From: a virus
Taxonomy: Duplodnaviria; Caudoviricetes
Length of the DNA: 53,813 bases
Strand: one strand, 5' to 3'
IMG/VR virus record: IMGVR_UViG_3300037478_000427
Span: 1 to 53,813 of that record
The position numbers were made by a program, and so were the translations under genes. The notes beneath the pieces are model-generated. The model was not told the DNA's origin and ran no database searches. It worked only from the letters and a program-made list of their open reading frames with translations. Every line of letters starts with the position of its first letter. The stretch's first letter is position 1. Below, piece after piece: positions 34,346 through 53,813 of this stretch.

Positions 34346-34382
34346 GTGTCCGGTCAAGCAGACAGTCAGCTTGACCGGACAC
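34346..34382 (-). terminator. Intergenic stem-loop
   Basis: 14-bp inverted repeat GTGTCCGGTCAAGC/GCTTGACCGGACAC. Confidence 0.5.
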
Positions 34383-34461
34383 TCATCGTACTGTGGTCAA
34401 GCTGACCGATCTTGGTCAACGTGACCGTCAGCCTGACTGTCAGCCTGACCGTCAAGCTGAC
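34365..34461. repeat. Array of six GTCA-N3-TGAC palindromes
   Basis: Starts at 34365, 34396, 34415, 34427, 34439, 34451; the last four have a 12-bp period. Confidence 0.85.
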
Positions 34462-34729
34462 CGAGCCGGAGAGCTTGACGCCACCTTGACAGGCGCTTCG
34501 CGCACGCCTCGTTGCACGTGGCTGCGCCGCGTGTCCGTCTGTGGTCATGGTTGACAGACAGCAGCTCGCCGCACCACGGTGCGTCGCAGCGTGACGGGTC
34601 AGCCATGAACTGCTTGTTGACCAGGATGACTTCCTTGACACGCGGGTCGAGGTCAATGTCGACCTGATGTCCGACGAGCCCACGGTCTGGGTCATGCGAC
34701 CCGGACGCCACTGCTGTACGGGTGGTCAT
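34397..34729 (-). CDS. Putative zinc-finger DNA-binding protein
   Basis: 110 aa; CDAPWC...CNEACAKRLSRWR; GAGGAG RBS, ATGA overlap. Confidence 0.6.
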   Translation of the reverse strand: MTTRTAVASGSHDPDRGLVGHQVDIDLDPRVKEVILVNKQFMADPSRCDAPWCGELLSVNHDHRRTRGAATCNEACAKRLSRWRQALRLGQLDGQADSQADGHVDQDRSA

Positions 34730-37523: not shown

Positions 37524-38981
37524 TCACTCCTGTTCGATCGAGTCGATGATGGTGTCGTCCGTGTCGATCTGGGCATCGTCGGGCAGGATCTTGATGCCGT
37601 AGTACGAACGGGCCTGCTTGCCGTCGATGCGTGGCATGGCGGCACGGCAGCCACGCAGCTCGAGCGCCTTGTACAGGTCGCTCTGCTTGCCGATCGTCGC
37701 GCTCTCGTCCTTCGCCCACGTCTGCCAGGCCGTCCAGATCTCTGAACGGGTGGCGAGGTTGTTGGGGCTGAGCTCTGCACGAGCGTGCAGAAACTTGGAC
37801 ACGTCGTCGCTGTCGTCCCGGTAGCGAGACGTGGCGAGCTCCACCTGCGGTGGTGTGTTCATGCGGTAGCCGTTGCGGAGGTACTGCTGGAAGCCCTCGA
37901 CAGCCCACGTCAGGATGCCGTCGGCCTCCAGCCTGAGCTTGTCGCCCAGTGTGGGGTCACGGTCCTCCAGTGGTACGACCACGTCGAACGGGATCACCCG
38001 GATGCGACGCCAGGCTGCGTCGTCAGATGCACTGACGTCCGGCAGGTAGTTGGTCACGATCAGGATGGTCCACGTCGGCTCGAACGTGACGGACGAGGAG
38101 TACAGATCACGGGTGGTGATCTTGTCCCCGCCGGTGACGTTCTTCATCACCGCGGTGTTCAGCTCGACACCCTCCTTGGTCTCGGAGGTGACGACGAAGC
38201 GTGTGCCACGCAATGCGAACAGCGCAGGGTTGGCACGCCCGCTCTCCCGGCGTGTGCCCAGGAGGAGCTCCTGCTCAGCGGTGTGCGAGTAGTCGCCCAG
38301 TGCGAAGCCGAGCGCCTCCACCATGGTGGACTTGCCGTTCGCACCGGTGCCGGTGGCGATGCCGAGGATGTGCTCACGCACAGTGCCGAGCAGGGAGATA
38401 CCCACGTATTGCTGGAGGTACTTCTGCACTGCCTTGTCGGGCAGCACCTGGTCGAGGAATGCGGACCAGCGTGGCGTGGTGGCAGTGGAATCGAAGGCTG
38501 CCTCGGACACCAGGGTGACGTCGTCGTCCGGTGTGGTGGGCCTGAGTTGACCTGTCATCAGGTCGACCATCCCGGACCGGGTGTTCAGCTGCCACGGATC
38601 GATATCCATTTCGGACATCGATCGTGCGATCTCTGGTGAATGCTGTGCGATGGACAGGATGCCGGCCTGGGACTTCGCCGACATCATGGAGGTGAGCTCC
38701 TTCATGTCGGACTGCTGATCCTTCTTCGCTGCGACAGTGAGCAGGGATATCAGGAGTTGCTTCAGACTTTCGCGTGCTTCGTCTTTCAAGCACTCCACCC
38801 AGCGGTATCCGTCCCACATGTGCCAGCCGCTGCTTCCGTAGATGTAGCGGAACTTGTTCTTGCGCAGACGGACGAACGCCTCGGCGTACTTCGTCTGGCC
38901 CTTGACCAGTCGGTCGGCGCCCTGGTCGGACGCCTCGGTGCTGGTGTCACCGGGGCTCAACGGGGTGCTGTGGTCGTTCAC
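37524..38981 (-). CDS. D5/P4-family SF3 replicative helicase (no fused primase domain)
   Basis: D5_N (WHMWDGYRW, LNTRSGMVDL), Walker A GTGANGKST, Walker B VVTSE, motif C IVTNYLP, AAWRRI, C-terminal winged helix. Confidence 0.9.
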   Translation of the reverse strand: MNDHSTPLSPGDTSTEASDQGADRLVKGQTKYAEAFVRLRKNKFRYIYGSSGWHMWDGYRWVECLKDEARESLKQLLISLLTVAAKKDQQSDMKELTSMMSAKSQAGILSIAQHSPEIARSMSEMDIDPWQLNTRSGMVDLMTGQLRPTTPDDDVTLVSEAAFDSTATTPRWSAFLDQVLPDKAVQKYLQQYVGISLLGTVREHILGIATGTGANGKSTMVEALGFALGDYSHTAEQELLLGTRRESGRANPALFALRGTRFVVTSETKEGVELNTAVMKNVTGGDKITTRDLYSSSVTFEPTWTILIVTNYLPDVSASDDAAWRRIRVIPFDVVVPLEDRDPTLGDKLRLEADGILTWAVEGFQQYLRNGYRMNTPPQVELATSRYRDDSDDVSKFLHARAELSPNNLATRSEIWTAWQTWAKDESATIGKQSDLYKALELRGCRAAMPRIDGKQARSYYGIKILPDDAQIDTDDTIIDSIEQE

Positions 38982-39035
38982 TTGGTGCTCCTGACACAGA
39001 TGGGGCGCAAGTCTCTGACCTGCGCAAATGCCTAA

Positions 39036-39126
39036 GTGACTACAGGTGATTACAGGGCTGGCACCACTTTGGGCTGTCGCTTTCTCATGTACTACTTGGT
39101 GCCAGGGTTGTCACTGCCTGTGTCAC
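39036..39126. repeat. ~91-bp quasi-palindromic element, copy 2 (candidate origin/operator)
   Basis: Imperfect direct repeat of 22048-22139. Confidence 0.75.
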
Positions 39127-39298
39127 TCTACCTCCAGTCGGTTCGTTTTCCTCCCCCGGGTGGAGGCGAGGCAGCGGACAAATCGGACAGTGTCGAACAG
39201 GTGTACGTAGTAGCTACGAGAGCATAGCTCTCACCTCCTTTCTCCTTTATATATTAATTCTCTTCTCTTCTCTTCTCTCAAAAAGAAATACATTCTTC

Positions 39299-39365
39299 AG
39301 CAGCACAGCCGTGCTGCTTGACAGCCGTCAAAGTGTACGGCCGTACGAAGCGTGCAGTCGCACGC
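39299..39365. promoter_or_regulatory. Four tandem hairpins with conserved C-RGYC-G loops
   Basis: AGCAGCAC-AGCC-GTGCTGCT, TTGAC-AGCC-GTCAA, GTAC-GGCC-GTAC, GCGTGC-AGTC-GCACGC. Confidence 0.7.
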
Positions 39366-39407
39366 AATATAAGACAACATGAATGAAGTAATGAATGGTT
39401 AAGTGTA

Positions 39408-39436
39408 AATGTATAGGCCCTATTCAAATAAGACAA
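39408..39436 (-). promoter_or_regulatory. Sigma70/SigA-like leftward promoter
   Basis: TTGTCT-N17-TACATT on the minus strand, upstream of the early operon. Confidence 0.5.
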
Positions 39437-39556
39437 TCATCCCTGTACGTACTCGTCACGTGATGCCGGTCGCTCGGTCGCCCGAGCGCAAGCGTCACGA
39501 GACTAGGGGTAATGATTCTGCTGTGTTGTGTTGAGTCGTCGTCGTACAGGAGATGA
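39437..39556 (-). ncRNA. Candidate structured non-coding RNA
   Basis: Closing stem TCATC.CCTGTACG/CGTACAGG.GATGA enclosing a hairpin with a minus-strand GCGA (GNRA) tetraloop; no credible ORF. Confidence 0.3.
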
Positions 39557-39576
39557 ATAAAAAAGAATAGGACAAT

Positions 39577-39618
39577 AGAAAAAGAAAGGAAGAGCCCACT
39601 CATTGAGTGGACTCTTCC
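39577..39618 (-). terminator. Rho-independent terminator after the first leftward gene
   Basis: Minus-strand stem GGAAGAGTCCACTCA/TGAGTGGGCTCTTCC (one G-U) followed by TTTCTTTTTCT. Confidence 0.8.
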
Positions 39619-39628
39619 AGGATTGGTA

Positions 39629-39895
39629 TTACTTGCTGAGTGCGATGAGCTGCTCCTTGAGCGCCTGGTACACGGCGACGTCGACCGGGTCGTTCGGGTC
39701 GAGTGCGAGCTCCTTGATGGCTCCGCGGATCTTGATGATCTGCTGAGCACGGGACGCGGTGCGTGCGTCCTGGGACTTGGAGAGGTAGTCGTCGATGAGC
39801 CGCTGGGAGACCTGGCGTTCGGCCTGGATCTCCGGGTTGAGGCTGCTGGCTACGCCTGAAAGGAGAGCCTCGTTGAAGCTGGACATGAGGGACAT
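39629..39895 (-). CDS. Hypothetical protein, first leftward (probably immediate-early) gene
   Basis: 88 aa, GGAGG RBS, GC-rich coding island inside the AT-rich region, own terminator. Confidence 0.8.
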   Translation of the reverse strand: MSLMSSFNEALLSGVASSLNPEIQAERQVSQRLIDDYLSKSQDARTASRAQQIIKIRGAIKELALDPNDPVDVAVYQALKEQLIALSK

Positions 39896-39952
39896 GTGGA
39901 CCTCCGTGTGTCGGTGTGATGCGGAAGGAGATGAGTGACGAGAGGTGTTGCT

Positions 39953-39991
39953 GTGGTACAGGTGCAGAAAGTGGTACAGGTGGTACAGGTG
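39953..39991. repeat. GTGGTACAGGTG direct repeats (3 copies)
   Basis: At 39953, 39971 and 39980 (last two overlapping); adjacent to the AT-rich tract. Confidence 0.75.
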
Positions 39992-39999
39992 GTGTTGTG

Positions 40000-40145
40000 T
40001 GTTGCAAGAAAAGTGACATAATGTAACGATAGGATCAAATGAACCTATCTATTTAATGTAACTGGAAATGGCTTATATAATATACATATATACATATGTA
40101 TAGGGGGTATGTGTTGTCTTATTTGTATTATATTATATTTTAGGA
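40000..40145. other. Very AT-rich tract at the divergence point (promoter/unwinding region)
   Basis: Runs such as TATATAATATACATATATACATATGTATA in an otherwise GC-rich genome. Confidence 0.8.
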
Positions 40146-40391
40146 AGTGCGCAGAAAACTTTTCGCACCGCCACACATGTCCGGCCATGTATCTCCTGCT
40201 AGCCGTCGGTGAGGCTGCCGCAGGCAGTAGCAACCTCAACCTCGCTTGAGGTTCAACCCAGCCAGCCAGAGTCGTCTCTGTCACATCCGTGGGGCCTGTA
40301 CGGTCATGACACGGGTAACTCCGCGTGCGGAGACAGCCGAAGGAGCATCGGCAGGTACGATTGCCTCTGACGACGAGCGGAAGGTGCCCAG

Positions 40392-43300
40392 GTGGCAAGC
40401 GGAGATGAGTTCGCGGCGGGAGCCGGCGCCAGGATCGCGGGTCCGGCTGGGCTGAACCAGCAGGTGGAGGATCAGGCGCAGGCGAACGCCGAGGCGACCG
40501 GGCAGCCCCTCCAGAGTGCGTTCGCCCAGGCCGCCTCGAATCGCCTCGCAGGCCCGGTCACCGAAGCCCCGGGTGCCCCGCGCTGGTCGACGGGTGGTCA
40601 GACGGGCGACACCGCGAACGCCTTCGACAACGAGTTCTACGACACGTTCTTCAGCCAGCAGCGGGAACAGGTCGACAAGGGTGCGCTCGGCGAGCTGTAC
40701 CAGCGCAAGGACTTCACGGGCGTGGTGACGTACGACGGCAGCCAGGACGCGACCGGCAAGGCTGCCACGTTCGGTGACGTGTACGAGGACGGCCGCAAGG
40801 TCGGAAACCTGTACGAGTCGTACGACCGGGCGACGGCGGACAGTCTCCTGGCGGATCTGACGCTCGACCCGGAGACGCGGCGGCAGGCGTACGCCCGCTT
40901 CGACACCGACCCCGAGGCATTGAGCCGGGAGGTGCAGCGGGTCCGGGATGCCACCACCAGTGACAACCAGAAGTTCCTGGGGCAGCAGGAGTACGCCTCG
41001 GCGGTCGATGAGGTGTCCAACCGGTTCGAGCAGTCGGACGGCGTGGACGAGGTGCTCACGGTGCTCGGCGGTGCCGCGGGTGGTGCGGCCGTTGGGGCGG
41101 GTGCCGGCGCGCTGTTCGGCGGGTTCGGTGCGATCCCGGGCGCCATCATCGGCGGTGTGGTCGGCGGGGTGGGTGCGGCGCTGAACCAGGACGAGATCCT
41201 GGATGCGGCGGCCCGCGCGAAGGTGCAGACGGACATGGCGTCCGAGCAGTTCGGTCCGGCGGGGGCTGTCTCCACGGGCGTGCTCGGCTGGAGCCAGGTC
41301 GCAGGCAAGCTGGTGAACCCCCTGGGGAATGTGACCCGCGGGGCGTACGACGCCATCGAGGGCGATCTGAACGACGGCGAGCTGGCGTACTACAGCACCG
41401 ACGAGAACGGTGAGGCCACTCGGCCGCTGTGGATGACGGGGCTGAATCTGGCGGCGACGCTGGGTGATGCGGCGTTCACGTTCGCGACTCCGATCGGTGC
41501 TGCGGCGTATCTCACGCCGATGACGGGTGCGATCCTGGGTGAGGTCGGGCAGCTCGCCTTCCAGGGCGGTAGCACCTTCTCGGATCAGCGTGGCGACTTC
41601 GACTCGATCTTCACCGACGACCAGGGTGACTTCGATCCGGGCAGTGCGGCGGCCGGGATCGGGAAGATCGCGATCGACGCGGTGCAGGTGGCCACTCCGG
41701 TGGGCCTGATGCGGATGTTCCGCGGCAACGAGCAGGCGGTCGCAGCGGGGCTCTCCGGGCGCCGCGTCACTGCGGGCGGGTTCAGCTACCGGCTCGATGA
41801 CGCGGGACGGGCGATCGACGGCACGCGTCGGGTGAGCGCGTCGCTGCTCGCCCCGTCGGAACAGCTCACTGCGATCTCCGCACGGGTGCTGGCGAGGCGG
41901 GATGCGGCCCTCAGAACTGGTGCTTCCCGGAACACGGTGGTGCTCACGGCGGACGACTACTACCGGGCGGCGACGAAGCTCTCGGATGGCACGGGGCGCT
42001 GGTCGAGCGCCCTGGTGACCGCGGTGGGCGAGGGCTACGAGGAGTTCGTGCAGGCGATCCTGGAGCCGGTCAGCCACGACGACCGGATCGACTGGCGTGA
42101 GGCGTACGACGCGGCGCTCCAGGGCGCTGCGATGGGCGCTGGCATGTACCTCGGTGCCTCCGCGGCCCGGCGCGGCCCTGCGTCGGCGGACGAGCGGCTG
42201 TACGCGAAGGCGGTGCTCGCCCGGCGAGACCTGACGGGTGACACGGACTCCTCGCCGGAGCAACTCTTCCCGCGCTCCGAGTGGACCGCGATGCGCGACG
42301 TAGAGCGGCGGCAGGCGGCAGCGCTCTCGCCGATGCAGACGGAGCAGGCGCGTGTCGCGCTCCAGAAGCTCCAGGGATCCATGCAGGCCGATCAGGTCGC
42401 GGGGATCTGGGGCGTGGAGAAGGTGCGCGACGCCGTCGTCAAGCAGGCGAACACCGAGGCGAATCGTGCCGGCCGGCGCTCTGACGGCTCGTACGTGATC
42501 ACGATCCTCGAGGATGCGGACTGGCCGGGGCACACGATCGGCAGCTCGCTCGACCAGACGATCAGCCTGATGGTGGATCACGGCCGGGGTCTGGAGGAGC
42601 AGGTCGAGTTCCTCACCCGCACCGACCTGAACTCCCAGGACGCTCAGGTGCAGAGCAGTGCTCGTGCGACGATCGACGAGACTCAGCAGGTGATCCAGCG
42701 GGTCAACGAGTACCTGACTCAGCTCCGGGCGTTCAAGGACGTGGCGGACCGGGAGCGGGTGGCGGGTGACCGTGTCCGTCACGACGAGGTGGTGCGCCTG
42801 GCGAACTCCCGGCTGCGGGCGTGGTTCAGCGACCAGGACTCCATCGGCCAGAGGGCCGGGACGCTGCTGTTCGTGCGCAATCCGACCGACCAGACCGGCT
42901 CGTACCAGGCGTTCATGCCGCAGGTGGTGCCGGGGCTGTCGTGGGATCAGGCGGACAACGCTCTCCAGACGTCGACTGCTGTGCTCCAGGGGCTCGGCGG
43001 CGACTACGACGGCGACAAGATCGTGTACCAGGGCAAGCTCCTGGTGGACGGCGAGACCTTCCAGAACCTTCGGACCGGAAGGAATCTCATCGGGACCATG
43101 GGTCCGACGGCGGAGGCGGTGAACATCGGCACGCGTGAGTTCGAGGAGCGCGAGGTGCAGGTGCTCGCCGGTGCCCTCGCGGCGAACAACGTGCCGGTGG
43201 CCACCGGTGCGCAGGCCACGATCGCGGACATCGCACGCTGGTTCGCGACCCGCTACGACGGCTACATCCCGAGGGACCGGATCGATCGCATCAACCGGCG

Positions 43301-46300
43301 CCTGGCGCACGACCTGCGCTCGGGTGACACGAGGGCGCGCGACCACATGCTCACCGCGCTGGCGCGTGAGGAGGGCTTCTGGAAGCGGGCACGGGAGTTC
43401 AACTCGAACGAGCCGATCGCCGCGGACGGGCAGGTGCAGCTCGAACTCCAGAGGTTCCAGCGCTACCAGGCGGTGCAGAAGGCGACGGACAACCCGGTCG
43501 CGAACACTGATGCCATCGCGCCGACGGTGCAGAACTCCCGGGCGTGGGCGATCAAGCAGGTTCGTGCGGCCACGGAGGGGCAGGATCTGGGGCTCCGGGC
43601 GGAAGGGCACAGCCTCTTCCGGATGTTCCAGAAGCTGCACTACTCGGTCTTCAACGCCCAGGTGATCGGCAGTGATCCGGCGAACCTGGCGGCCGCCACT
43701 GCTGATCTGACGACGGCGTACGAGGCCCTGTCCCAGGGCGCCACGCAGGAGCAGGGTACGCAGGCGACAGACCGGGACAACATCGCGGCGAAGGTGCTCG
43801 GCTACCTTCAGGCGCTCGCGGCAGGCTCCGATGCCCCCACCAGGGATCTGGTGATGATCGGGTCGATCTCGGTCGGCAATGCGGAGTTCGGCGAGAGCGG
43901 CGACTTCCGGATCAACAACGAGCCGATCTCGATGCTCCAGCTTCTGCTGCGGCAGGCGATCGGTGAGGACCGCCGGGACAAGGCCGCGGTCATCACGCCT
44001 GAGCTGGAGAGCAAGTGGGCCAGGCTGGAGCAGCTCACCCGTCCGGGTAACTCGGGCGAGGCGATGGTGGAGATGCTGGGCGGTCGGACGCTCTGGTCTC
44101 TGCTGGGTGAGCAGGCTGCGGCACTGGGTCCGCAGCTCACGCTGGAGCAGTTCGTGCGGGTGTACGTCGGCCAGAGCAAGAACGCCCGGCGCACCGCGTC
44201 GCAGCGGATGAAGCTGGAGCCGGCGTACCTCGGGCGCAAGGAGCGCAAGGATGCGCCGTACGACTGGCGCGAGATCACCGACCCGGCGTCCGGGCTGACG
44301 GCGTACCGCACCCTGGTGGACGCGGTGCTGGAGACCGGCAACAACCGGGTGTACCTGCGGGACGACTTCTCGGTCGGCGGCAGCTACGGGCAGCGGAGCG
44401 ACCGGTACCAGGGTGCGCTCGTCGAGGCGTTCAGCAACATCGGACAGGCGTTCAAGCAGCGCGGAAGCGGCAGGAACGCTGCTGAGGTCCGAGCGCTGCT
44501 GGACGCCTACCCGGACTTCGCGCGCGACGTGATGAATCTGATCCCGGACGGCGACGTGAACGCCGTGTTCGAGTACCGGGACGGCAAGCTGTACATCAGC
44601 AACTGGGTGTACGAGATGCTGGCGATGGAGCCGGCGCAGGCTGCCACGCACTACTGGCGGAATCTGATCCTGTCGCAGTGGCACGCGAAGGGTGCGCGGC
44701 ACGACGACGAGGACGGCGACAAGGCGCGCACGTACAACCGGCTGGACAACCGGTGGCACCAGCTCATGTTCCGGCTCGCCAACCAGGGTGACGGCGGGTA
44801 CGCACTGGCGGACTTCACTCGCCGGATGCAGCAGGCGACCGACCTGAGCGAGTTCACCAAGTACGTGAACCAGTCGATTCGCTCCACGACGGAGGCGCCG
44901 TTCACGGCCTGGATGGCTGACACGGCGGACTACGATCCGGACAAGGCGAGTGGTGGCTGGTCGGGTGGTGGCGGTGCCGCGACCGTGCGAGAGGCAATCC
45001 TGGCGCTGCGTGATCGCAGCTCACGGCTGACGCAGGAGGTCGCCGAGGAGCAGATCGCAGCACAGGCGGACGACGTGCTGATGTCCAGCCTTCTGACAGC
45101 AGACCAGGCTGGAGATGAGGCGGCCAACGGTGACAAGACGCTGCTGGCGAACCTCGATCGCGCGATCGAGCTCGCTGGGCAGCAGCTCACCGCGATGGGT
45201 CCGGCGGCGATGCGGTACCAGATCGTCGGCAGCCAGCGCACGTTCTACCCGCAGGCGACCGACAAGGGCCGGGCGCCGGACGTGTACCAGGTGCACGGCT
45301 CGTTCCAGGCGCTCGCGGACACGATCGGCTATGCGACGCAGTATGAGCGGCTGCGGGACATGCTGATCTCGGTGGACGCCGAAGACCTCGGGGCGAACCC
45401 GCAGGTGCTCGCGCGTGACGACCTCGACGTGTCCGACGGCGACGGGTCGACGTTCTCCTGGGAGGGCGTGGACCGGTCTCGCATCCTCCAGCTCTGGGCG
45501 GACGAGCCGGCCAGCCGTCCGCTGATCCGGGCGATGCTGTTCCCGAGCGTGTACGAGCGCACGGCCAACGGCCGCCTGTCCCAGCAGTTCCTCACCGGCA
45601 AGTCGATGAAGGAGCTGCTGGAGCGCAACCTGTACCCGCGGATGATCACGGACTCCTCGGCCGAGTCGAAGTTCACGTACCTGTCGATGCTCGAGTCCCA
45701 GGCGAAGCGGGACGAGGCGCAGTTCGTCGTGCAGCGTGCGGTGAACGACATCCTGTTCGCGCATTCAGCTTCTGCAACTACTCCTCTGTCGACGAGCGAG
45801 CAGGAGCAGCGCACCGACGAGATGATGCTGACGGTCGCGGACATCATGCGGCAGGTCGGCGATCTGGTCGCGACGTCGGGTGAGGGCGCCAAGCCGCTGC
45901 TCGACGGTATGCGGGAGCGGCTGACGCAGATGCTGGAGCAGCGTCGCGGTGGCGCTGCGCTCGGGCTGACCGGCACTGACGCGGAGTACGCGCACACGAT
46001 GATCGAGGCCGCGGTCGATGACCGGCTCGCCGAGCTTCAGGAGCGGCAGACCGCTGCGCTGACCACCGGTGACCTCGATCGGGCTGAGTCGATCGGGCGA
46101 CTGATCCAGCAGCTTCGCCCGCGGATGCAGGCGGCGCTGGATTCGAGGGCGTTCAAGCAGTACCGCGAGAACCTCGCGATCGACTGGAACGACCCGACGC
46201 AGGCCGAGATGAAGAAGGCGGAGATCCGGGACGCGGTCACGGCACCGGGACGGGGCACCACGCTCAAGACGAAGGCGCCCTGGGCGTCCGACGCCGTCGA

Positions 46301-49300
46301 CCGGGTGCTGGCGTACGACCTTCAGGACAACAACGACTCGAACCCGATCCTCTTCGTGAACGAGCAGGACGACCGTGAAGGCTGGGACTCCCTGGTGGAC
46401 GCGCTCACGGCCGCCTACTTCGAGGACGCCACTTCGATCCAGGCCGAGGGCGTGGCGGTGCCGCAGCTCAGATGGGGCAAGGACTACATCCGGCGCTACT
46501 GGGACCCGACCTACAGCTACCTGCTGGACCACATGCTCGACGTCGAGTCTCCGCTCGTGCAGGCTGCCGCTCGCACGCACCTGCTGGCGTTCGACTCGAA
46601 CACCAGCATGGCTGACGCGGCGGCGCTGGAGCGGCGCATCGCGGCCAGCGTGCTCGACGAGTTCCGGCTGGCGCAGTGGAGTGTGGACATCCCGCGCGTC
46701 AGTGTCGAGGCGAACCAGCGCATGGACGCCAGTGCGGCCGCGGATGCCGTGGCGATGGGCGGGATCAGCCCGCGTCGTCAGTTCGTCACGAACGTGGCCA
46801 CCGAGCGGCAGTACACCCAGCCGCTGCCGGATTCCGTCTCGACGGCGAGCATTCCGCTGGTGCGGCTGCTCACGGGGTCCGGTGAGTTCCCGACGACGCT
46901 GCGTGTGCCAGGTGCGCAGGATCAGGACGTCTCCACGCCGGTGATGCTGATGAACGGGCGGTTCGCCCGGAGCGTCACGGTCGACATCGACGGCCAGCAG
47001 TACCCGATCCCGATGGACCGGGTCGGGCATCAGCACTTCGAGAACGCCTCGATCGTGCAGTCGGGCCTGCGTGCCATCACGGTGCGCCGGCTCCAGCGTG
47101 CCGTCGAGGCGATGCCGGAACTGCGGGGCGCCGACCGGGATCGCGTGGTCGTACACGTGGAGTACCTGCACCCGGACAGTCAGCCCGCGACGCCCGAGCA
47201 CTACAACAGCATCTTCTACGGCGGCGTCACCGGCGAGCTCGAATCGGACAGCCAGCGCTCGGTGAACGCGAGCCTGTGGTTCGGCGCCGGCGGGCAGTCG
47301 CCGGACGTGCAGGCGTCGGCTCTCGGCGCCAACAAGAAGGGGAAGCTCGCCTACGTCCTGAAGGCGAACAACGAGCAGTTCACCGGCCGGGCTCGCCGCG
47401 AGGCCGAGCTGGGCTGGGAGACCGACCTGTCGCAGGTGATCCAGCGCAAGACGATGGCGCTGATGACCAACGACCTCGGCAACGGCGTGCTGGAGCAGAC
47501 GAACTTCAACGCGGTGTTCGCCGACGCACGACGGCGCCACTTCGTGCGCGGGTCGATCGACGGCGAGCGCGTGCTGTGGGATGCGGAGAAGGTCATCGCG
47601 TGGCAGCGGGCCAACCCGGGCCGCTCGATCGCCGAGGTCATCGAGGCGCCGGAGCTGTGGAAGCCGGGCGCTCGCACCCTGCGCACGATGCTGGGCGAGA
47701 CCGGTGACCAGGGCGCTGCCGGTCGGATGCTGCTGGAGGTCGACTTCGACCCGCAGGCAATCCCGCGCTACCGGGGCGTCGACAACACGCCGGGGATCCT
47801 GGACAGGGTGCCGGGCTGGAGCAGGACGACCGATCTGTTCGCGACCCCTGCGGCCGGGCGCACGTTCCAGTCACGGCTGCGGATCCGGCCTGCGCTGGAC
47901 GAGCGGACGCGGCTCGCGTACGAGCGTGGCGTGCAGTACCGCGGTGCGCTCAAGGCGCAGGTGCACGAGGCGCGGGACGCGAACTGGGGTGACGGCCGGG
48001 CAGGGAAGCAGGCCGGTGACGCGGTCTCGTCGGCGACGGATGCCGTGCGGTCGGAGACGCCTGGCCTGGACTTCGTGACGGCGGGCTTCGGGTTCATCGG
48101 CCAGCCGGCCAGTTCCGATCAGCTCATCTCCGAGGTGGTGCTGCGCGGCTACCGTGAGTCGATGCAGCTTCGCGGCCGGGAGACCGGCTGGATCTACCGG
48201 GAGCAGGTGTCCGGGCGGCTGCCGTCGGATCCTGCCGCGGGTGTCATCACGCAGACGCAGATCGACCCGAACCAGAAGGGCTTCCCGTCACGGTTCGAGA
48301 ACCAGATCGCGCCGGATGACCTGGTCGCCGTCGAGGTCGACTCGTTCCTCGCGGTGTCTCAGGACCCGGCCAAGCGCCGCAGTGAGGCGATGAAGCGCCT
48401 GGACCTGCTGGCGCAGCGGTGGCCGGTGATCGCGCTGACCGAGGGGGATGGCGGCCGCGACCTGCGGGCCGAGCTCGGCCAGTACCTGACCGACTCCCTG
48501 GGCTACGAGCGTGTGGCGGGCACCAGCCACCTGTACCGCCCGGCAGTGCGTGACAGCCGCTATCAGACGCAGCAGGCTCGTGTGTCGACGCTGGCGGAGA
48601 CGCACACCGAGTCGGCGGAGAACTACTACTCCGTGTTCCTCGCGGGGCCGGAGAGCCCGCTGCCGGTCACCGAGAACGCTGCGCTCCTGCTGAACAGGAG
48701 CTCGGCCCGTCAGGTCGCCGTCGGTGTCGGACTCGTGCCGGTGAATGCCTTCGGCTCCTTCGGGATGCCGCAGGACCCCACTACGATCGAGTCGACCCGG
48801 AGCGCTGTCGAGCGGATGCTCCGGCCCGAGCAGTTCGAGCACCTGCTCAAGCTGTCGGCGATCGAAGACCCGATGTCGCAGGAGGCTGGCGATCTGCGTC
48901 TGGCGCTGGAGCGCTACGTGCAGAACGTGGACGACTCCGGGCGTCCGGCGCGGGGCACGGAGTTCGGTCTGGGTGACATCCTGCCGCTGGTCGATCGTCG
49001 CGGCCGCATCCTGCTGTACCGGCACGGGCACAAGGCTCCGACGCACGTCGAGCAGCAGCTCGCCTCAGAGCTCATCCCGGGTGCCGGCGGGTTCGGCGTC
49101 GCGGTGTACACCGCTGTGCCGCAGCCGACGGCGACGGTGAACACCGGCAAGATCGTGAAGTTCGAGACGGACACCCAGTATGGGCTGACTGTGCAGATGC
49201 GCATTCCGCTCCAGCGTCTGGCCGACAAGCTCCAGGTCGAGGGTAACGCGATGAAGTACGTCGTCGCCTCGGCCGACAAGGTGTACACGCCGCGGCACGA

Positions 49301-52300
49301 CCTGTTCGCCAACGGCGAGCGCATCGACCTGGGCAGCGACCTCGACTCCGCGCTGGCGAAGGAGTCGACTGGTGGCCTGATCAACAACTTCCGGAACGCC
49401 TTCGCGTTCTTCGGCATCGACTTCATGCCGGACCTCGTGCGCTACTTCTACGGCGGCGACTACGCCCAGATGAGCTCCAGTGAGCGCGAGGCCGCCGCGA
49501 CCGCGGTACGTCAGCTTCTGCTGGCGGTGCACGACCAGTCGCAGCCGCTGCCCGTCGAGGTGGTGCAGCAGCTCATGTCGGCTCCGTACGTCGATGCCGA
49601 GGTGACTGAGCTCCTGCGTAGCGTGGCTGGTCCGTCGGTCGGCAACTCGAACTGGCGTGAGCAGATCATGGACCCAACGGCGGATGCTCCGCACCAGCGG
49701 ATCGCCCGCGCCGTCGTGCTGTACATGCTGATGCCGCAGGCTCGGTCGGAGCACGTGCTCAGTGCTGGCGGCATGAACAACTCGGACATCCGGACCCGCG
49801 GGTTCATCAACCACATGCCGCGGATCTTCACCGAGGTGTTCGACAGGACCGGACTGAACGACGAGCTGCGGACAGAGCTGATCCGGCGGCTCAATGCGCA
49901 GATCGACAACGCTCCGGCTCTCTCGGCGCAGTCGGCCGAGCGGTACTGGATCAGCCCAGACTTCGGCTTCCACATGCACGTGGAGCAGGAGCCCGGCCAG
50001 ATCAGCCAGCTCGACGGCTATCTCCAGTTCTCTTCGGTGTTCTCGGCCGGAGACAACCCGGTGCTGAACGGGCAGGCGTACGACCGCAGTGACCGGCAGA
50101 ACTGGAGCCGCCACTCCCTCGACATGGCGTACGAGACTATCGGCGCACGCACGGCGGCAGAGCGTGGGCTCGACAAGACCGCACGCTTCGCCCAGCTCCG
50201 CACCGGCCTGAGCCGCGGCTCGCTGTGGCAGATCCTCAACGACGTCACGCCCGAGCAGGGCGACCCGGTGTTCCTCCGCGAGCGCCCGGGTGAGATCGCA
50301 CGACGCCAGCTCGCGTACGAGGCGGTCGGGGAGTTCCGTTCGGCACTCGATCCGGCGCGCTGGGACGACGGCCAGTACGACCGCTACCTCGCGAAGCGCG
50401 TCGAGACCGCGCAGGCGTACGGGCTGCGGGAGGACCAGGCTGGCACCGTGGACTTCTGGGTGCGACAGATGTCCGGCCGCCCGCTGAACGAGACGGGTGG
50501 TGCCATCGGGTACCGCGAGGCGATGCAGGACCTGGACGAGATCCAGTGGAATGCCAGCCGTGGGCTGCTGCCGGTCGCTGGTGCCGAGGTGCCGCAGATC
50601 CACCTGCACGACCTGACCATGATGTTCAACGCCGGGGGCTCGAGGTTCCGGCTGGTCGAGGGCGCCGGCTCGGCGACGCCGGTCACGAGCTGGGAGGGCT
50701 GGGTGCAGGTCGCGCTCGGTACCGGGCAGGTCGAGCACAAGCTGTTCGACCCGATGTACCTGCTCGCGACGGACGGAATGATGCACTCGTTCCAGGACGC
50801 CATGGATTCTACGGTCAGCCTGCCGGTGAGCCGGGACATGATGGTCGCGGCGAACATGCTGGACGAGCAGACCGACCGCATCATCCAGTCACTCAACCAG
50901 GATGAGGAGCCCGTCCGCGTCCGAACCGACCGCCTCATCCAGTCGATCAATCCGGATGAGGACGTGCTGCTCCAGGACCCCATCGTGCTGGAGGCGGCCC
51001 GCCAGTCGTTCTCCGACCTGATGGGGGCGGAGCGCGTGGGCGCCTCGTTCCAGGGGTACCAGGCGCCGGACTCGGTGCTCGCCAAGCGGCGTGCCGCACG
51101 CCTGCGCTGGCGCAAGGAGCACGACGTGCCGACGCCGATGGACGTCACGCAGCAGAACTTCCGCGAGGGTGGCGTGAAGTTCATCGACGAGTCGACCAAG
51201 ACGAACACGCTGATGCGCGTGATGACCAACCTGCGAGTCGGCAACGCGCTGCTCAACCCGCTCCTGTGGGTGGGTGCTGGCCCTGAGATGTGGCTGCGTG
51301 GCGCGATGGACGAGGCGGGCAACCTGCTCCAGGGCACCTCGACGGCAGCGACCGGTCGGGTCGCCGCGGCCGTCGGGCTGTCCGCGAACTACACCCCGCA
51401 GCAGATCGACATGCTGCACGGTCTGTACAAGTCGCTCGGTCGCCGATCGGACTTCAAGGGCATGGTCTACCGCGAGCTGTCGTTCCAGCAGCCCCGGCTG
51501 AACAACGCCGGACGGATCGAGCGGTGGACTCACAACTACGCCCAGTTCGCCAGCCGGTGGCAGGACCCGACGTACGGGATGCCTGCGAACGCGGTAGCGC
51601 GCCGGTATGTCGAGAAGGCGCTGGACGAGCTCCAGTACACCGACCTGGGTGTCACGCCGGAGCAGCTCTCGGCGCAGCTCAACCAGGACCCGACGTGGCT
51701 CCAGAAGCACGCACCGGACGTGCACCAGGCCGCGGTGAACAGCATCGCGCAGATCCGCTCGCTCCGGCCGACTCCGCTCAGTCTGACGCTGCGCGGGATC
51801 TACGAGCCGATGAGCGAGTCGGCGCACATGCCGGTGAACCTGATGGGGCACCTGGTGAAGCTGCCGCTGCTGTTCTCGGGCTACCTCACGAACACCGTGA
51901 CGACGCTGACCGGTATGCAGGGCTTCAGCAACATGGCCGCCATGTTCCTCGAAGGCCGGAACAAGGGCCTCATCGGTCGGATCCAGGCCGCGATCAAGGG
52001 CGAGGAGTTCAGCCAGGAGAGCAACTACGTGGACATGTCCACGGCGCTCGACGGCGTGAACCTGGCGAAGATGTTCGTGCAGGGTGGCCTGACGCACACC
52101 GGGCTGTTCGCACTGGGTCTGGCAGCACAGGGGCTCGGGCTCACCGGCGAGGACGAGGAGGAGCGTCGTCGCCGGCGCGCGGCGCTCGTGCAGGGCGGGC
52201 AGTTCCTGTACGACCCGCGCCGTCTTCAGAACGACTTCCGCAACCAGGAGGCCGTGTTCCTGGACTGGCTGCCGCCGTTCTTCTCCCAGTGGTTCGATGT

Positions 52301-53813
52301 GAGCGGTGAAGGCACCACCTCGATGGCGAACATGCCGTGGATCGTGGAGCAGTTCATCTCGCCGATCATCGGTATGGAGCGCTTCTTCGACACCGGCGAC
52401 CCTCGACAGATCCTCTGGGGATTCCAGCACGGCCTCGGAGCGAGCCCGCTGTTCAACGCCTCCTCGTTCGATGACGCCAGCCAGATGTTCGCCGAGCTCA
52501 TGGCGAACGCCGACGACGCCGCCAAGCGCGGCACGCCGGACGACCTGGCGGAGAGCTACGGCTTCATGGTCTCCGCGGTCGGCACGCTGGAGCGGATGAT
52601 GTTCGAGAACGCCTTCGTGAACAGCATCTACGTCGGGATCGACAAGTACGACCGCGACCAGTGGAAGCTGCCCATGACGGACAGCGACGGCGAGCAGCAG
52701 GTGGACATCTTCGGGACTCCTCGGCAGACCGAGGCGCTGACGAACTTCGTGGACCCGGAGACCGGGGAGATCCGGTCGGGCTACGTGAACCGGGACTGGG
52801 TGTCGGCGACGGCACGGCAGCTCTCGGAGAACCGGCTCGGCGTGGCTCTGATCGGTGCTCTCACGTCCGGCAAGGGCTTCGAGTCCGACTTCTTCCGGCA
52901 GAACATGGTGGTGAAGCAGCGCAAGCTGCGCAAGCCTGAGCTCTCGCCGGAGGAGACCGAGGGTCTGCTGCTGTCCGTCTGGGACTCCGAGACCTACGGT
53001 GACGGGCACGAGCTCCTGACCGAGGGTGGCGCTCGTGCCGTGTTCCAGGGGATCTACGGCGGCACCGTGCAGTTCGGGGCTCCGGCCCTGGACGGCGTGT
53101 TCGTCCCGCTGGACATGCGGCAGACGATCCAGGACAAATGGATGGCTGACATCATGGCCGACGGCATCAAGTCCGGGCTGAGCGAGAAGGATTCCACCAG
53201 CCGTATGTGGGACATCTGGCTGGGCTCGAGTGACTCGCCGTACGGGGTCGGGCTGAAGGACATCCTGTGGTCGAAGGAGATCCCGTACACCGAGACCGTC
53301 CGATACAACCAGCTCAACACCACGTACGTCATCGGGCCGGACGGCTGGCCGTGGGCGACGGGCGTGAGCCGGGACAACCTGACGAACCTGTTCGGCATGG
53401 CGCCGGCTCGCTACCAGGTCGACCCGGGCAACCTGGCGTCCGATGAGCGGCTGAATACGATCGACGACGCCGTGCGCCTCAACACCGGGATGCGCGCCCT
53501 GGAGCGGATCGACGACACCTGGGCCATCCCGACGGACGAGGAGATCGGTGAGCGGATCCAGGAGTCGCTGGAGAAGCTCGGCGACAACCTCACCGAGGCG
53601 CTCAAGGGCGACGGTAACGGCTGGGTGAACTACCCACGCCGGTCGGGCAGCTACGGCCGGGGCAGCTACGGCTCCGGCGGTGGCTTCTACGGCGGTGGCA
53701 CCGTGTACGGGTCGGGCTACGTGCAGCGGATGAACACGCCGCGGCGCATCGATCGCCCGTATGCTCGGGCTCTGTACAGCATCAACACGTCTCGACCGAT
53801 CCTGCGCCGCGCA
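40392..53813 (+). CDS. Giant ~4,492-aa virion protein containing a two-barrel DNA-dependent RNA polymerase (continues across the join to 184)
   Basis: GGAAGG RBS then GTG 40392 after an in-frame stop at 40368. No terminated ORF in this frame appears in the track. VRNP (42873-42884) and GGDYDGD (DYDGD at 43002-43016) are beta'-like; ADK-x8-K...NGERIDL (49221-49331) is beta-like. Confidence 0.88.
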   Translation, partial: MASGDEFAAGAGARIAGPAGLNQQVEDQAQANAEATGQPLQSAFAQAASNRLAGPVTEAPGAPRWSTGGQTGDTANAFDNEFYDTFFSQQREQVDKGALGELYQRKDFTGVVTYDGSQDATGKAATFGDVYEDGRKVGNLYESYDRATADSLLADLTLDPETRRQAYARFDTDPEALSREVQRVRDATTSDNQKFLGQQEYASAVDEVSNRFEQSDGVDEVLTVLGGAAGGAAVGAGAGALFGGFGAIPGAIIGGVVGGVGAALNQDEILDAAARAKVQTDMASEQFGPAGAVSTGVLGWSQVAGKLVNPLGNVTRGAYDAIEGDLNDGELAYYSTDENGEATRPLWMTGLNLAATLGDAAFTFATPIGAAAYLTPMTGAILGEVGQLAFQGGSTFSDQRGDFDSIFTDDQGDFDPGSAAAGIGKIAIDAVQVATPVGLMRMFRGNEQAVAAGLSGRRVTAGGFSYRLDDAGRAIDGTRRVSASLLAPSEQLTAISARVLARRDAALRTGASRNTVVLTADDYYRAATKLSDGTGRWSSALVTAVGEGYEEFVQAILEPVSHDDRIDWREAYDAALQGAAMGAGMYLGASAARRGPASADERLYAKAVLARRDLTGDTDSSPEQLFPRSEWTAMRDVERRQAAALSPMQTEQARVALQKLQGSMQADQVAGIWGVEKVRDAVVKQANTEANRAGRRSDGSYVITILEDADWPGHTIGSSLDQTISLMVDHGRGLEEQVEFLTRTDLNSQDAQVQSSARATIDETQQVIQRVNEYLTQLRAFKDVADRERVAGDRVRHDEVVRLANSRLRAWFSDQDSIGQRAGTLLFVRNPTDQTGSYQAFMPQVVPGLSWDQADNALQTSTAVLQGLGGDYDGDKIVYQGKLLVDGETFQNLRTGRNLIGTMGPTAEAVNIGTREFEEREVQVLAGALAANNVPVATGAQATIADIARWFATRYDGYIPRDRIDRINRRLAHDLRSGDTRARDHMLTALAREEGFWKRAREFNSNEPIAADGQVQLELQRFQRYQAVQKATDNPVANTDAIAPTVQNSRAWAIKQVRAATEGQDLGLRAEGHSLFRMFQKLHYSVFNAQVIGSDPANLAAATADLTTAYEALSQGATQEQGTQATDRDNIAAKVLGYLQALAAGSDAPTRDLVMIGSISVGNAEFGESGDFRINNEPISMLQLLLRQAIGEDRRDKAAVITPELESKWARLEQLTRPGNSGEAMVEMLGGRTLWSLLGEQAAALGPQLTLEQFVRVYVGQSKNARRTASQRMKLEPAYLGRKERKDAPYDWREITDPASGLTAYRTLVDAVLETGNNRVYLRDDFSVGGSYGQRSDRYQGALVEAFSNIGQAFKQRGSGRNAAEVRALLDAYPDFARDVMNLIPDGDVNAVFEYRDGKLYISNWVYEMLAMEPAQAATHYWRNLILSQWHAKGARHDDEDGDKARTYNRLDNRWHQLMFRLANQGDGGYALADFTRRMQQATDLSEFTKYVNQSIRSTTEAPFTAWMADTADYDPDKASGGWSGGGGAATVREAILALRDRSSRLTQEVAEEQIAAQADDVLMSSLLTADQAGDEAANGDKTLLANLDRAIELAGQQLTAMGPAAMRYQIVGSQRTFYPQATDKGRAPDVYQVHGSFQALADTIGYATQYERLRDMLISVDAEDLGANPQVLARDDLDVSDGDGSTFSWEGVDRSRILQLWADEPASRPLIRAMLFPSVYERTANGRLSQQFLTGKSMKELLERNLYPRMITDSSAESKFTYLSMLESQAKRDEAQFVVQRAVNDILFAHSASATTPLSTSEQEQRTDEMMLTVADIMRQVGDLVATSGEGAKPLLDGMRERLTQMLEQRRGGAALGLTGTDAEYAHTMIEAAVDDRLAELQERQTAALTTGDLDRAESIGRLIQQLRPRMQAALDSRAFKQYRENLAIDWNDPTQAEMKKAEIRDAVTAPGRGTTLKTKAPWASDAVDRVLAYDLQDNNDSNPILFVNEQDDREGWDSLVDALTAAYFEDATSIQAEGVAVPQLRWGKDYIRRYWDPTYSYLLDHMLDVESPLVQAAARTHLLAFDSNTSMADAAALERRIAASVLDEFRLAQWSVDIPRVSVEANQRMDASAAADAVAMGGISPRRQFVTNVATERQYTQPLPDSVSTASIPLVRLLTGSGEFPTTLRVPGAQDQDVSTPVMLMNGRFARSVTVDIDGQQYPIPMDRVGHQHFENASIVQSGLRAITVRRLQRAVEAMPELRGADRDRVVVHVEYLHPDSQPATPEHYNSIFYGGVTGELESDSQRSVNASLWFGAGGQSPDVQASALGANKKGKLAYVLKANNEQFTGRARREAELGWETDLSQVIQRKTMALMTNDLGNGVLEQTNFNAVFADARRRHFVRGSIDGERVLWDAEKVIAWQRANPGRSIAEVIEAPELWKPGARTLRTMLGETGDQGAAGRMLLEVDFDPQAIPRYRGVDNTPGILDRVPGWSRTTDLFATPAAGRTFQSRLRIRPALDERTRLAYERGVQYRGALKAQVHEARDANWGDGRAGKQAGDAVSSATDAVRSETPGLDFVTAGFGFIGQPASSDQLISEVVLRGYRESMQLRGRETGWIYREQVSGRLPSDPAAGVITQTQIDPNQKGFPSRFENQIAPDDLVAVEVDSFLAVSQDPAKRRSEAMKRLDLLAQRWPVIALTEGDGGRDLRAELGQYLTDSLGYERVAGTSHLYRPAVRDSRYQTQQARVSTLAETHTESAENYYSVFLAGPESPLPVTENAALLLNRSSARQVAVGVGLVPVNAFGSFGMPQDPTTIESTRSAVERMLRPEQFEHLLKLSAIEDPMSQEAGDLRLALERYVQNVDDSGRPARGTEFGLGDILPLVDRRGRILLYRHGHKAPTHVEQQLASELIPGAGGFGVAVYTAVPQPTATVNTGKIVKFETDTQYGLTVQMRIPLQRLADKLQVEGNAMKYVVASADKVYTPRHDLFANGERIDLGSDLDSALAKESTGGLINNFRNAFAFFGIDFMPDLVRYFYGGDYAQMSSSEREAAATAVRQLLLAVHDQSQPLPVEVVQQLMSAPYVDAEVTELLRSVAGPSVGNSNWREQIMDPTADAPHQRIARAVVLYMLMPQARSEHVLSAGGMNNSDIRTRGFINHMPRIFTEVFDRTGLNDELRTELIRRLNAQIDNAPALSAQSAERYWISPDFGFHMHVEQEPGQISQLDGYLQFSSVFSAGDNPVLNGQAYDRSDRQNWSRHSLDMAYETIGARTAAERGLDKTARFAQLRTGLSRGSLWQILNDVTPEQGDPVFLRERPGEIARRQLAYEAVGEFRSALDPARWDDGQYDRYLAKRVETAQAYGLREDQAGTVDFWVRQMSGRPLNETGGAIGYREAMQDLDEIQWNASRGLLPVAGAEVPQIHLHDLTMMFNAGGSRFRLVEGAGSATPVTSWEGWVQVALGTGQVEHKLFDPMYLLATDGMMHSFQDAMDSTVSLPVSRDMMVAANMLDEQTDRIIQSLNQDEEPVRVRTDRLIQSINPDEDVLLQDPIVLEAARQSFSDLMGAERVGASFQGYQAPDSVLAKRRAARLRWRKEHDVPTPMDVTQQNFREGGVKFIDESTKTNTLMRVMTNLRVGNALLNPLLWVGAGPEMWLRGAMDEAGNLLQGTSTAATGRVAAAVGLSANYTPQQIDMLHGLYKSLGRRSDFKGMVYRELSFQQPRLNNAGRIERWTHNYAQFASRWQDPTYGMPANAVARRYVEKALDELQYTDLGVTPEQLSAQLNQDPTWLQKHAPDVHQAAVNSIAQIRSLRPTPLSLTLRGIYEPMSESAHMPVNLMGHLVKLPLLFSGYLTNTVTTLTGMQGFSNMAAMFLEGRNKGLIGRIQAAIKGEEFSQESNYVDMSTALDGVNLAKMFVQGGLTHTGLFALGLAAQGLGLTGEDEEERRRRRAALVQGGQFLYDPRRLQNDFRNQEAVFLDWLPPFFSQWFDVSGEGTTSMANMPWIVEQFISPIIGMERFFDTGDPRQILWGFQHGLGASPLFNASSFDDASQMFAELMANADDAAKRGTPDDLAESYGFMVSAVGTLERMMFENAFVNSIYVGIDKYDRDQWKLPMTDSDGEQQVDIFGTPRQTEALTNFVDPETGEIRSGYVNRDWVSATARQLSENRLGVALIGALTSGKGFESDFFRQNMVVKQRKLRKPELSPEETEGLLLSVWDSETYGDGHELLTEGGARAVFQGIYGGTVQFGAPALDGVFVPLDMRQTIQDKWMADIMADGIKSGLSEKDSTSRMWDIWLGSSDSPYGVGLKDILWSKEIPYTETVRYNQLNTTYVIGPDGWPWATGVSRDNLTNLFGMAPARYQVDPGNLASDERLNTIDDAVRLNTGMRALERIDDTWAIPTDEEIGERIQESLEKLGDNLTEALKGDGNGWVNYPRRSGSYGRGSYGSGGGFYGGGTVYGSGYVQRMNTPRRIDRPYARALYSINTSRPILRRA
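53687..53813. repeat. Terminal direct repeat, copy 2 (circular assembly overlap)
   Basis: Identical to 1-127. Confidence 0.95.

Follow-up and report, generated by a model that had tools for sequence, protein, structure and literature searches.

Sequence comparison showed that selection maintains a tandem array of short DNA hairpins that heads the leftward operon of a phage genome. What is preserved is intrastrand pairing, a loop of the asymmetric AGC type, a spacing of 17 nt and a constant register with the leader of the operon, in a single copy per genome. The array was investigated in the window, the whole 53,813-nt stretch of viral DNA that was analyzed, and in the relatives of that genome. 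It is a real conserved cis-element that has apparently not been described before. A search of the literature on Burro-type phages and two-barrel virion polymerases found nothing on either the polymerase motif or the array, and hairpins or stem-loops are not mentioned in the consulted parts of the article on phage Burro (PMC7302621).

The window genome and its hairpin array

The first 127 bases of the window are repeated at its end, giving a closed assembly of 53,686 unique bases with 65% GC. The window is a whole genome of ∼53.7 kb from a distant relative of the Microbacterium phages Burro and Araxxi and of cluster EK. The first 1000 residues of its giant protein matched 48 phage records (47 of Microbacterium and 1 of Arthrobacter) with 24-34% identity, among them Burro, Araxxi, Arete, DoTi, MissAmericana and cluster EK phages such as Akoni. 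The gene order is also that of the Burro/Araxxi/EK relatives, with a leftward non-structural block and a rightward block headed by the giant gene, as described for Burro-type phages in the consulted parts of PMC7302621. Microbacterium phages of this kind have been reported to be circularly permuted (PMC8281081). The leftward block, which extends from 38981 down to ∼20513, encodes replication functions: a D5_N/DUF5906 helicase, an AAA ATPase, a PD-(D/E)XK exonuclease, a family A DNA polymerase, an SF2 helicase and a protein with a weak Prim-Pol match. The placement of the array upstream of the whole early operon, as stated in the original prediction, was thereby confirmed, and Prim-Pol, helicases and polymerase A were found in the operon behind the array in all genomes compared.

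The first real gene of the leftward operon (37524..38981, minus strand) has D5_N and DUF5906 domain matches and is of the SF3 primase-helicase type. Between this gene and the array, the minus strand carries a vestige of the operon's original first gene (39214..39238), which consists of a Shine-Dalgarno-like GGAGG, 8 nt, an ATG, two codons and a stop. That first gene is still present in the relatives and, judged from the sequence, seems to have been lost in the window. As the array was kept in the window although the first gene behind it was lost, the array serves the operon and not its first gene. The D5-type helicase gene begins 240 nt past the vestigial start, a place where the relatives have no such gene.

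The array itself consists of four back-to-back hairpins on the plus strand, together spanning 39299 to 39365. Unit 1 (39299..39318) has a perfect 8-bp stem and the loop AGCC centered at 39308.5. Unit 2 (39318..39331), which has one base in common with unit 1, has a 5-bp stem and the loop AGCC (center 39324.5), unit 3 (39335..39346) a 4-bp stem and the loop GGCC (center 39340.5), and unit 4 (39350..39365) a 6-bp stem and the loop AGTC (center 39357.5). All four stems are perfectly Watson-Crick paired and every loop is closed by a C-G pair. The sequence itself and an independent hairpin scan gave the same result, in agreement with the stems of 8, 5, 4 and 6 bp and the C-G-closed loops that had been predicted. 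The earlier description of the array as a GC island in AT-rich DNA was also correct: its GC content is 0.63, as opposed to 0.27 in 39240-39298 and 0.28 in 39366-39437, with 0.65 for the genome. The leftward sigma70-like promoter that had been proposed just upstream of the array was not recovered; a consensus scan of 38800-40600 returned 0 promoter-like sites, and a leftward sigma-70 promoter was likewise absent by consensus scan in three relatives.

The chain of four adjacent hairpins with 4-nt loops (23 bp) is the maximum of the window genome. It was matched by 0 of 200 first-order Markov genomes, 5 of which had a chain of four with fewer pairs. When a laxer definition was applied (at least three adjacent hairpins, stems of at least 4 bp and loops of 3-4 nt), 17 clusters were found in the window. 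Adjacent hairpins alone are therefore not rare in this GC-rich DNA, and the case for the array rests on the shared loop, on the periodicity and, above all, on conservation. Folding of the array as plus-strand DNA yielded -21.9 kcal/mol (z -4.25), with 1 of 200 shuffles equally good. The corresponding values were -37.2 for minus-strand RNA (z -4.0, 0 of 200 shuffles) and -32.7 for plus-strand RNA (z -3.2, 1 of 200 shuffles). In the energy minimum of the array, hairpins 2 and 3 were paired with each other and not as separate units.

Rfam covariance models had no match in 39200-39440, and the two weak, unrelated matches elsewhere were below the gathering score. A scan for intrinsic terminators found none at the array and reported only that of the neighboring small gene. 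No RNA run was found that contains 38900-40500. Contigs of four DNA runs differed from 39000-39650 at two positions only (39055 and 39418) and were identical over the array. A role of the array as a pac site or genome end was rejected, as it lies mid-map and far from the terminase in records with assigned ends. A hairpin pair with TGCT loops (AGCA on the minus strand) is present at 810-853, inside a portal-like gene. It was considered as a second array and taken as chance; Burro has no counterpart of it.

Conservation of the array across relatives

The gap that holds the array was compared in 11 isolates (Burro, Araxxi, DoTi, Arete, MissAmericana, Akoni, Fede, Morrill, Astartes, Dashyla and DumpQuist) and in eight metagenomic records (L011, L013, L014, L015, L018, L019, L032 and L034), which together with the window made 20 genomes. 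Conservation in relatives had been set beforehand as a test of the prediction, and an array of 3-5 hairpins was found at the same place in 20 of 20 genomes containing the region. This place is the left end of a 600-950-nt gap that separates the small leftward gene and the giant gene from the rest of the leftward operon. The array was looser in L034, with spacings of 19, 18 and 23, and the large frame of this record has just 2027 residues. The gap signature was absent from record G003, which is 71% complete. No array was found in the jumbo-phage loci L020 and L021; together with L022, these loci match the DxDGD stretch of the giant protein only.

For the loop count, DoTi, DumpQuist and L014 were left out as near-copies of Araxxi, Dashyla and Astartes. 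Loops of 4 nt were found in 57 of the 61 counted units, with the core A-G-C and on stems of 2-8 bp. Among these 57 four-base loops, position 1 was A in 44, position 2 was G in 53 and position 3 was C in 55, while position 4 was C in 35 and A in 19 (16 non-redundant genomes). The loop motif is asymmetric and always lies on the sense strand of the giant gene, which is the template strand of the leftward operon.

Counted from the loop, pairs 1 to 6 were Watson-Crick in 61, 61, 59, 47, 44 and 41 of the 61 units, pairs 1 and 2 being partly paired by construction as units were chosen with at least two pairs. Beyond this, pairs 7 and 8 were Watson-Crick in 15 and 9 units. When the partners were slid by 1-2 columns, pairing was seen in 4-25 of the 61 units. 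All four pair types were found at each stem position, and the stems differ in every lineage. The four GC hairpins of Burro, Araxxi, DoTi and Arete were 100% paired, compared with 33-42% in slid controls; in these four genomes, both partners had been replaced in 11 of 22 pairs, single-sided changes were absent, and 0 of 500 shuffles attained any of the five measures. Across 16 diverse genomes, 78.8% of the cells were paired versus 27.6-43.8% when slid, a figure lowered by some rows of the alignment being one gap out of register, and the covariation score was 0.786 versus 0.09-0.20. The compensatory stem changes, above both slid and shuffled controls, and the conserved loops support the earlier proposal that selection acts on the structure together with the loop.

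The interval from loop to loop was exactly 17 nt in 34 of 53 cases and 16-18 nt in 48 of 53, whatever the stem length (2-8 bp), in a chain search that allowed intervals of 15-19.5. The units of L018 were mis-chosen by this search; the true spacing in that record is 17, 17. Six pairs, four loop bases, another six pairs and one spacer base add up to 17, which fits the drop in pairing past pair 6. Stems of 2-3 bp were found in 18 of 71 units, and the loop motif was kept there.

A second ruler connects the array with the operon leader. In 18 of 19 genomes, 29.5 nt (28.5-30.5) separate the center of the first AGC-type loop from the boundary between a pyrimidine tract and an A-run; L015 is without the motif. 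This motif occupies 39260..39285 on the plus strand of the window, where the pyrimidine tract (39260-39279) ends in C and is followed by the A-run (39280-39284), again at 29.5 nt from the first loop center. On the conserved A-run sits an AT-rich hairpin, termed unit 0, with a 5-bp stem and a 5-nt loop (39283..39297, plus strand), and an AT-rich hairpin is found on the A-run between the boundary and the first GC hairpin in most genomes. On the minus strand, the order is thus hairpins, U-run, GG, purine-rich leader, ribosome site and start codon.

A pattern scan of the whole window and the whole Burro genome returned one array of at least three units per genome. A covariance-model search, which had been suggested as a check of the prediction, gave a concordant result: the model built from 16 genomes had a single match in the window, a single match in Burro and none elsewhere at E ≤ 1. 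It also found the held-out record L032 at 63.6 bits, plus near-copies of training rows.

The stem failures were used to ask which strand folds. At pairs 1-5 they comprised 5 wobbles on the plus strand (G-T), 2 wobbles on the minus strand (A-C) and 26 other mismatches, a ratio as expected by chance, so that there is no RNA-type G-U enrichment on either strand. At the stem ends (n = 54), 11 G-T, 15 A-C and 28 other combinations were counted, and the wobble test did not name the folding strand. Predicted G-U pairs amounted to 18 of 368 in the arrays on the plus strand and 43 of 406 on the minus strand, compared with 16 of 185 in terminators of the same genomes; the folding program skews these counts, and they did not enter the decision on the strand.

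The control region and the giant virion protein

Upstream of the array lies a promoter-like box, which was identified by motif match in three copies. Leftward copy B (39367..39379, minus strand) abuts hairpin unit 4, leftward copy A (39426..39438, minus strand) has 2 mismatches, and a rightward copy (40112..40124, plus strand) is located 278 nt before the giant gene in a block of 26% GC. Three matches in the window genome compare with 0.13 expected, and 0 of 100 shuffles had three. In Burro, the whole-genome occurrence of the corresponding 15-mer is limited to the two corresponding sites. A stretch of 9-16 nt is common to both divergent sites in 10 of 13 genomes, a count given without a computed null; the shared box of Arete was seen separately. 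The copies of the box resemble each other within a genome and vary from clade to clade, as would be expected of a site recognized by a phage protein that co-evolves with it, and the boxes are candidate phage-specific divergent promoters. The distance from box to array varies from 0 to ∼450 nt, and no terminator was found between them in three relatives. The 26% GC block (40040-40150), between the small gene and the giant gene, contains an alternating TA/CA run, a G-run and a TATA-like hexamer. It is kept in all relatives examined.

The stretch that separates the box from the terminator of the small leftward gene contains a conserved structured element of ∼80 nt (39440..39506, plus strand), which was revealed by comparison and is composed of a covarying hairpin, an invariant GCAAGCG, 8 nt and CTAG. 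It was the sole part of the gap found by BLAST in Burro. The element occurs once in every relative (19 of the 30 loci compared) and, with one mismatch, in two further records, and it is a candidate small RNA or protein site. RNAalifold returned just 3 pairs for it, owing to an alignment out of register. The terminator is an intrinsic one with 14 pairs and a U-run (39588..39618, minus strand). The small conserved gene it follows (39629..39895, minus strand) encodes 88 aa, and its product had no Pfam, PHROG or Atlas match.

In relatives, dense iterons in both orientations surround AT-rich DNA between the box and the array. The iteron repeat differs by clade and is of the GGTAAC type in Burro and of another type in record G001. 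In L001 (5545-5800) and L034 (1120-1240), iterons are accompanied by repeated palindromes of ∼20 nt between box and array. This region of the relatives is origin-like or operator-like. No iterons were found beside the array in the window.

The giant gene (40392..53813, plus strand) encodes 4492 aa once the 127-bp end repeat is closed, with a DxDGD motif at residue 871 (43002-43016). The motif and an upstream R, P, G, S and P are invariant in all 13 proteins compared, which share 24-39% identity over the stretch. When a profile of 110 positions was compared with 177,635 PDB sequences, the top three matches were beta-prime of phage AR9 (E 0.0065 and 0.0071) and of phiKZ (E 0.054). The AR9 match is to beta-prime of the non-virion polymerase, and the alignment runs from the RxP..GS segment to DxDGD. 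A profile of five sequences matched phiKZ beta-prime at E 0.0032, and longer profiles of the giant protein were weaker (E 0.24-0.5 versus PDB). Pfam gave no polymerase match of any kind in the giant protein. In the consulted parts of PMC7302621, the Burro protein gp27 is described as virion-associated, with a role called unknown and no similarity to the N4 vRNAP. The virion two-barrel RNA polymerase assumed in the original prediction thus found partial support: a beta-prime-like catalytic motif is present in the giant gene, and the profile matches to it are weak. From these sequence features, the giant protein is probably a two-barrel-type RNA polymerase.

Possible functions of the array

We tentatively read the array as a template-strand DNA-hairpin platform at which a phage polymerase, probably the virion enzyme, would start RNA synthesis into the early operon, a reading that we consider possible rather than probable. 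The GC-rich repeats would extrude from the AT-rich DNA as hairpins under negative superhelical stress or upon DNA opening, and the template-strand hairpins with their AGC loops would be bound by a phage-encoded polymerase. This polymerase would most likely be the two-barrel-type domain of the giant protein of the virion, which would enter the cell along with the DNA. Leftward RNA synthesis would then begin at or near the C after the A-run and enter the purine-rich operon leader. The more specific claim that the array is the promoter of the two-barrel virion RNA polymerase, with AGC-type tetraloops presented on extruded template-strand hairpins and a start at the C after the A-run, appears doubtful. 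According to the consulted parts of a report on a crAss-like virion polymerase (bioRxiv 10.1101/2020.03.07.982082), single-stranded or denatured DNA was transcribed well by this enzyme and double-stranded DNA poorly.

The lean toward a DNA-level device comes from the lack of wobble enrichment, the linear rulers and the GC-in-AT setting. Several points count against a start platform. With the conserved box situated upstream, the array may be no more than part of the transcript. Stems of 2-3 bp are too weak for extrusion alone, the permuted genomes mean that the array is not at a fixed entering end, and tandem units 17 nt apart are unlike the N4 promoter arrangement.

The start platform would follow the logic of the coliphage N4 early promoters, reached independently with another enzyme, a 4-nt loop and a tandem array. 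The N4 promoters P1-P3 have a template-strand hairpin, a run of four A that serves as a ruler, and a C at +1 (PMC4496689, as consulted in part). Like the units of the array, whose loop motif lies on the template strand of the leftward operon, they are small hairpins with variable stems and a conserved loop that precede the early genes of a phage with a giant virion protein, and on the template strand an A-run and then a C follow downstream of the hairpin, here at a fixed 29.5 nt. In the N4 material consulted, the loop has 3 nt, contains a purine and is centered at -11 on a stem of 5-7 bp, whereas the array has 4-nt loops on stems of 2-8 bp and its first GC hairpin lies 29.5 nt from the boundary. 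The same material describes three separate promoters with one hairpin each and a T7-like single-subunit enzyme acting at a fixed entering genome end, in contrast to one tandem array per genome with a 17-nt period, a protein with a beta-prime-like motif and permuted genomes. The analogy to N4 drawn in the original prediction thus fails as a claim of membership. The array is not a member of the N4 promoter family, from which it departs in three defining features, namely loop size, tandem arrangement and enzyme type. By analogy, it would nevertheless work most like the N4 early promoters.

The position of the array downstream of a promoter-like box leans toward an element of the leader RNA, which we also regard as possible, although on the doubtful side. 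Transcription would start from the upstream box, and hairpins with GGCU or UGCU loops in the 5' leader RNA would act in cis, either by binding a protein or polymerase for processive antitermination over the ∼19-kb operon or by stabilizing or processing the message in a nut/put-like manner. The array does lie between the box and the ribosome-binding region, at a variable distance from the former and a fixed distance from the leader, and the stretch from box to array is without a terminator in three relatives. Minus-strand RNA folding far above shuffles (z -4.0) also fits. Hairpin arrays with a common loop and set spacing are typical of RNA-protein recognition, and the lambda nut boxB and HK022 put hairpins likewise stand in the leader of a long early operon. 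Lambda, however, has one boxB with a 5-nt loop and HK022 put two larger stem-loops, whereas the array has 3-5 units with a 17-nt period, and neither a boxA-like element in the control region nor an N-like protein was identified here. An RNA device is further at odds with the lack of G-U enrichment on the minus strand (2 A-C cells on the plus strand versus 26 other mismatches at pairs 1-5), set against the 16 G-U in 185 predicted pairs of the terminators, a weak, prediction-based comparison. In addition, copy B of the window box abuts unit 4, so a transcript from it would not contain the whole of this unit, stems of 2-3 bp would not fold alone, and no Rfam family matched. The box is a putative promoter, and neither the window nor three relatives yielded a leftward sigma-70 match.

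Iterons and replication genes lean toward an origin, and a role of the array in origin-linked priming seems unlikely but deserves weight. The gap would be the replication origin and the plus-strand hairpins single-strand initiation signals for the leftward leading strand, primed by the phage Prim-Pol, by the D5-type primase-helicase or by an RNA polymerase acting as primase, as in G4, f1 or RSF1010 ssiA/ssiB. Next to the array, relatives have iterons in both orientations that flank AT-rich DNA; the operon behind the array encodes Prim-Pol, helicases and polymerase A, with the D5-type gene directly behind in the window. Phage primases use trinucleotide sites, which the invariant loop core, G-C (or G-T) followed by C or A, resembles. 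Like the array, the G4 complementary-strand origin, the f1 minus-strand origin and RSF1010 ssiA/ssiB are made up of hairpins standing next to each other, in their case in single-stranded DNA close to an origin, where RNA is initiated by a primase or RNA polymerase. RSF1010 RepB' primes on hairpin repeats within oriV (PMC8567376, consulted in part). Such signals are not known to share a loop motif or a fixed period, however, and RSF1010 has one per strand, whereas the hairpins of the array all lie on one strand and in register with the mRNA leader. Origin priming leaves this fixed register without a reason, independent priming sites do not need an exact 17-nt spacing, and the array was kept in the window without iterons alongside. 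The start platform and origin priming share their geometry, namely leftward RNA synthesis on the plus strand, and both could be true together.

A reader of the duplex would be an even less probable explanation. The units would be 17-bp sites for an oligomeric phage protein, or the palindromes would form a supercoil-sensitive block that replaces the -35 of a host-polymerase promoter, with the -10 in the T-rich motif that is conserved immediately to the left of the array. The two rulers are linear in sequence (17 nt and 29.5 nt), units with 2-3-bp stems keep the loop motif, and a TAnnnT hexamer can be read in the T-rich motif in ∼9 of 14 genomes, by eye and unscored. Covarying arms without sequence conservation are not explained by such a reader, 17 bp is not a whole number of helical turns, and the -10-like hexamer fails key positions in the window and four other genomes, the consensus scan finding no promoter. 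Perfect palindromes can persist by templated repair, and the array might have no function at all, its palindromes persisting by DNA-level copying or being due to chance. We consider this highly improbable: place, strand, loop, period and register are constant over 20 genomes with giant proteins 18-39% identical, and the window chain was attained by 0 of 200 simulated genomes.

The giant virion proteins phi14:2 gp66 and P23-45 gp96 also have a catalytic motif of the two-barrel type and transcribe the first genes of their phages. The consulted parts of the reports describe the phi14:2 early transcripts and promoters as without a common upstream motif (bioRxiv 10.1101/2020.03.07.982082), and the virion polymerase of the Thermus phage P23-45 as using an AT-rich sequence motif (PMC10770324). 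In the sources compared, as far as consulted, no hairpin array is described for either phage. The 13-kb gene of Burro, Araxxi and cluster EK has been described as puzzling since 2020, and these phages can be cultivated on harmless Microbacterium hosts. The array and the neighboring giant protein with its polymerase motif form a concrete candidate pair of signal and enzyme. If the array is indeed the promoter of a two-barrel virion RNA polymerase, it would give single-chain, crAss/QDE-1-like virion polymerases their first defined type of promoter, and these enzymes and the T7-like N4 polymerase would have converged; leftward replication could be primed from this start as well. Whichever reader acts on it, be it a polymerase, a primase or an RNA-binding protein, a 17-nt array with a fixed loop and drifting stems amounts to an unusually clean natural mutagenesis of a structure-specific site.

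Other inverted repeats were seen in the leftward operon of the window. Two longer, imperfect ones lie at 39042-39121 and 39131-39166, between the vestigial start and the helicase gene. At least five palindromes of the type GGTCA-N3-TGACC stand in a row at 34360-34480, inside a gap of the operon. They are likely an operator or iteron array for a DNA-binding protein and may replace the iterons that the relatives have beside the hairpin array.
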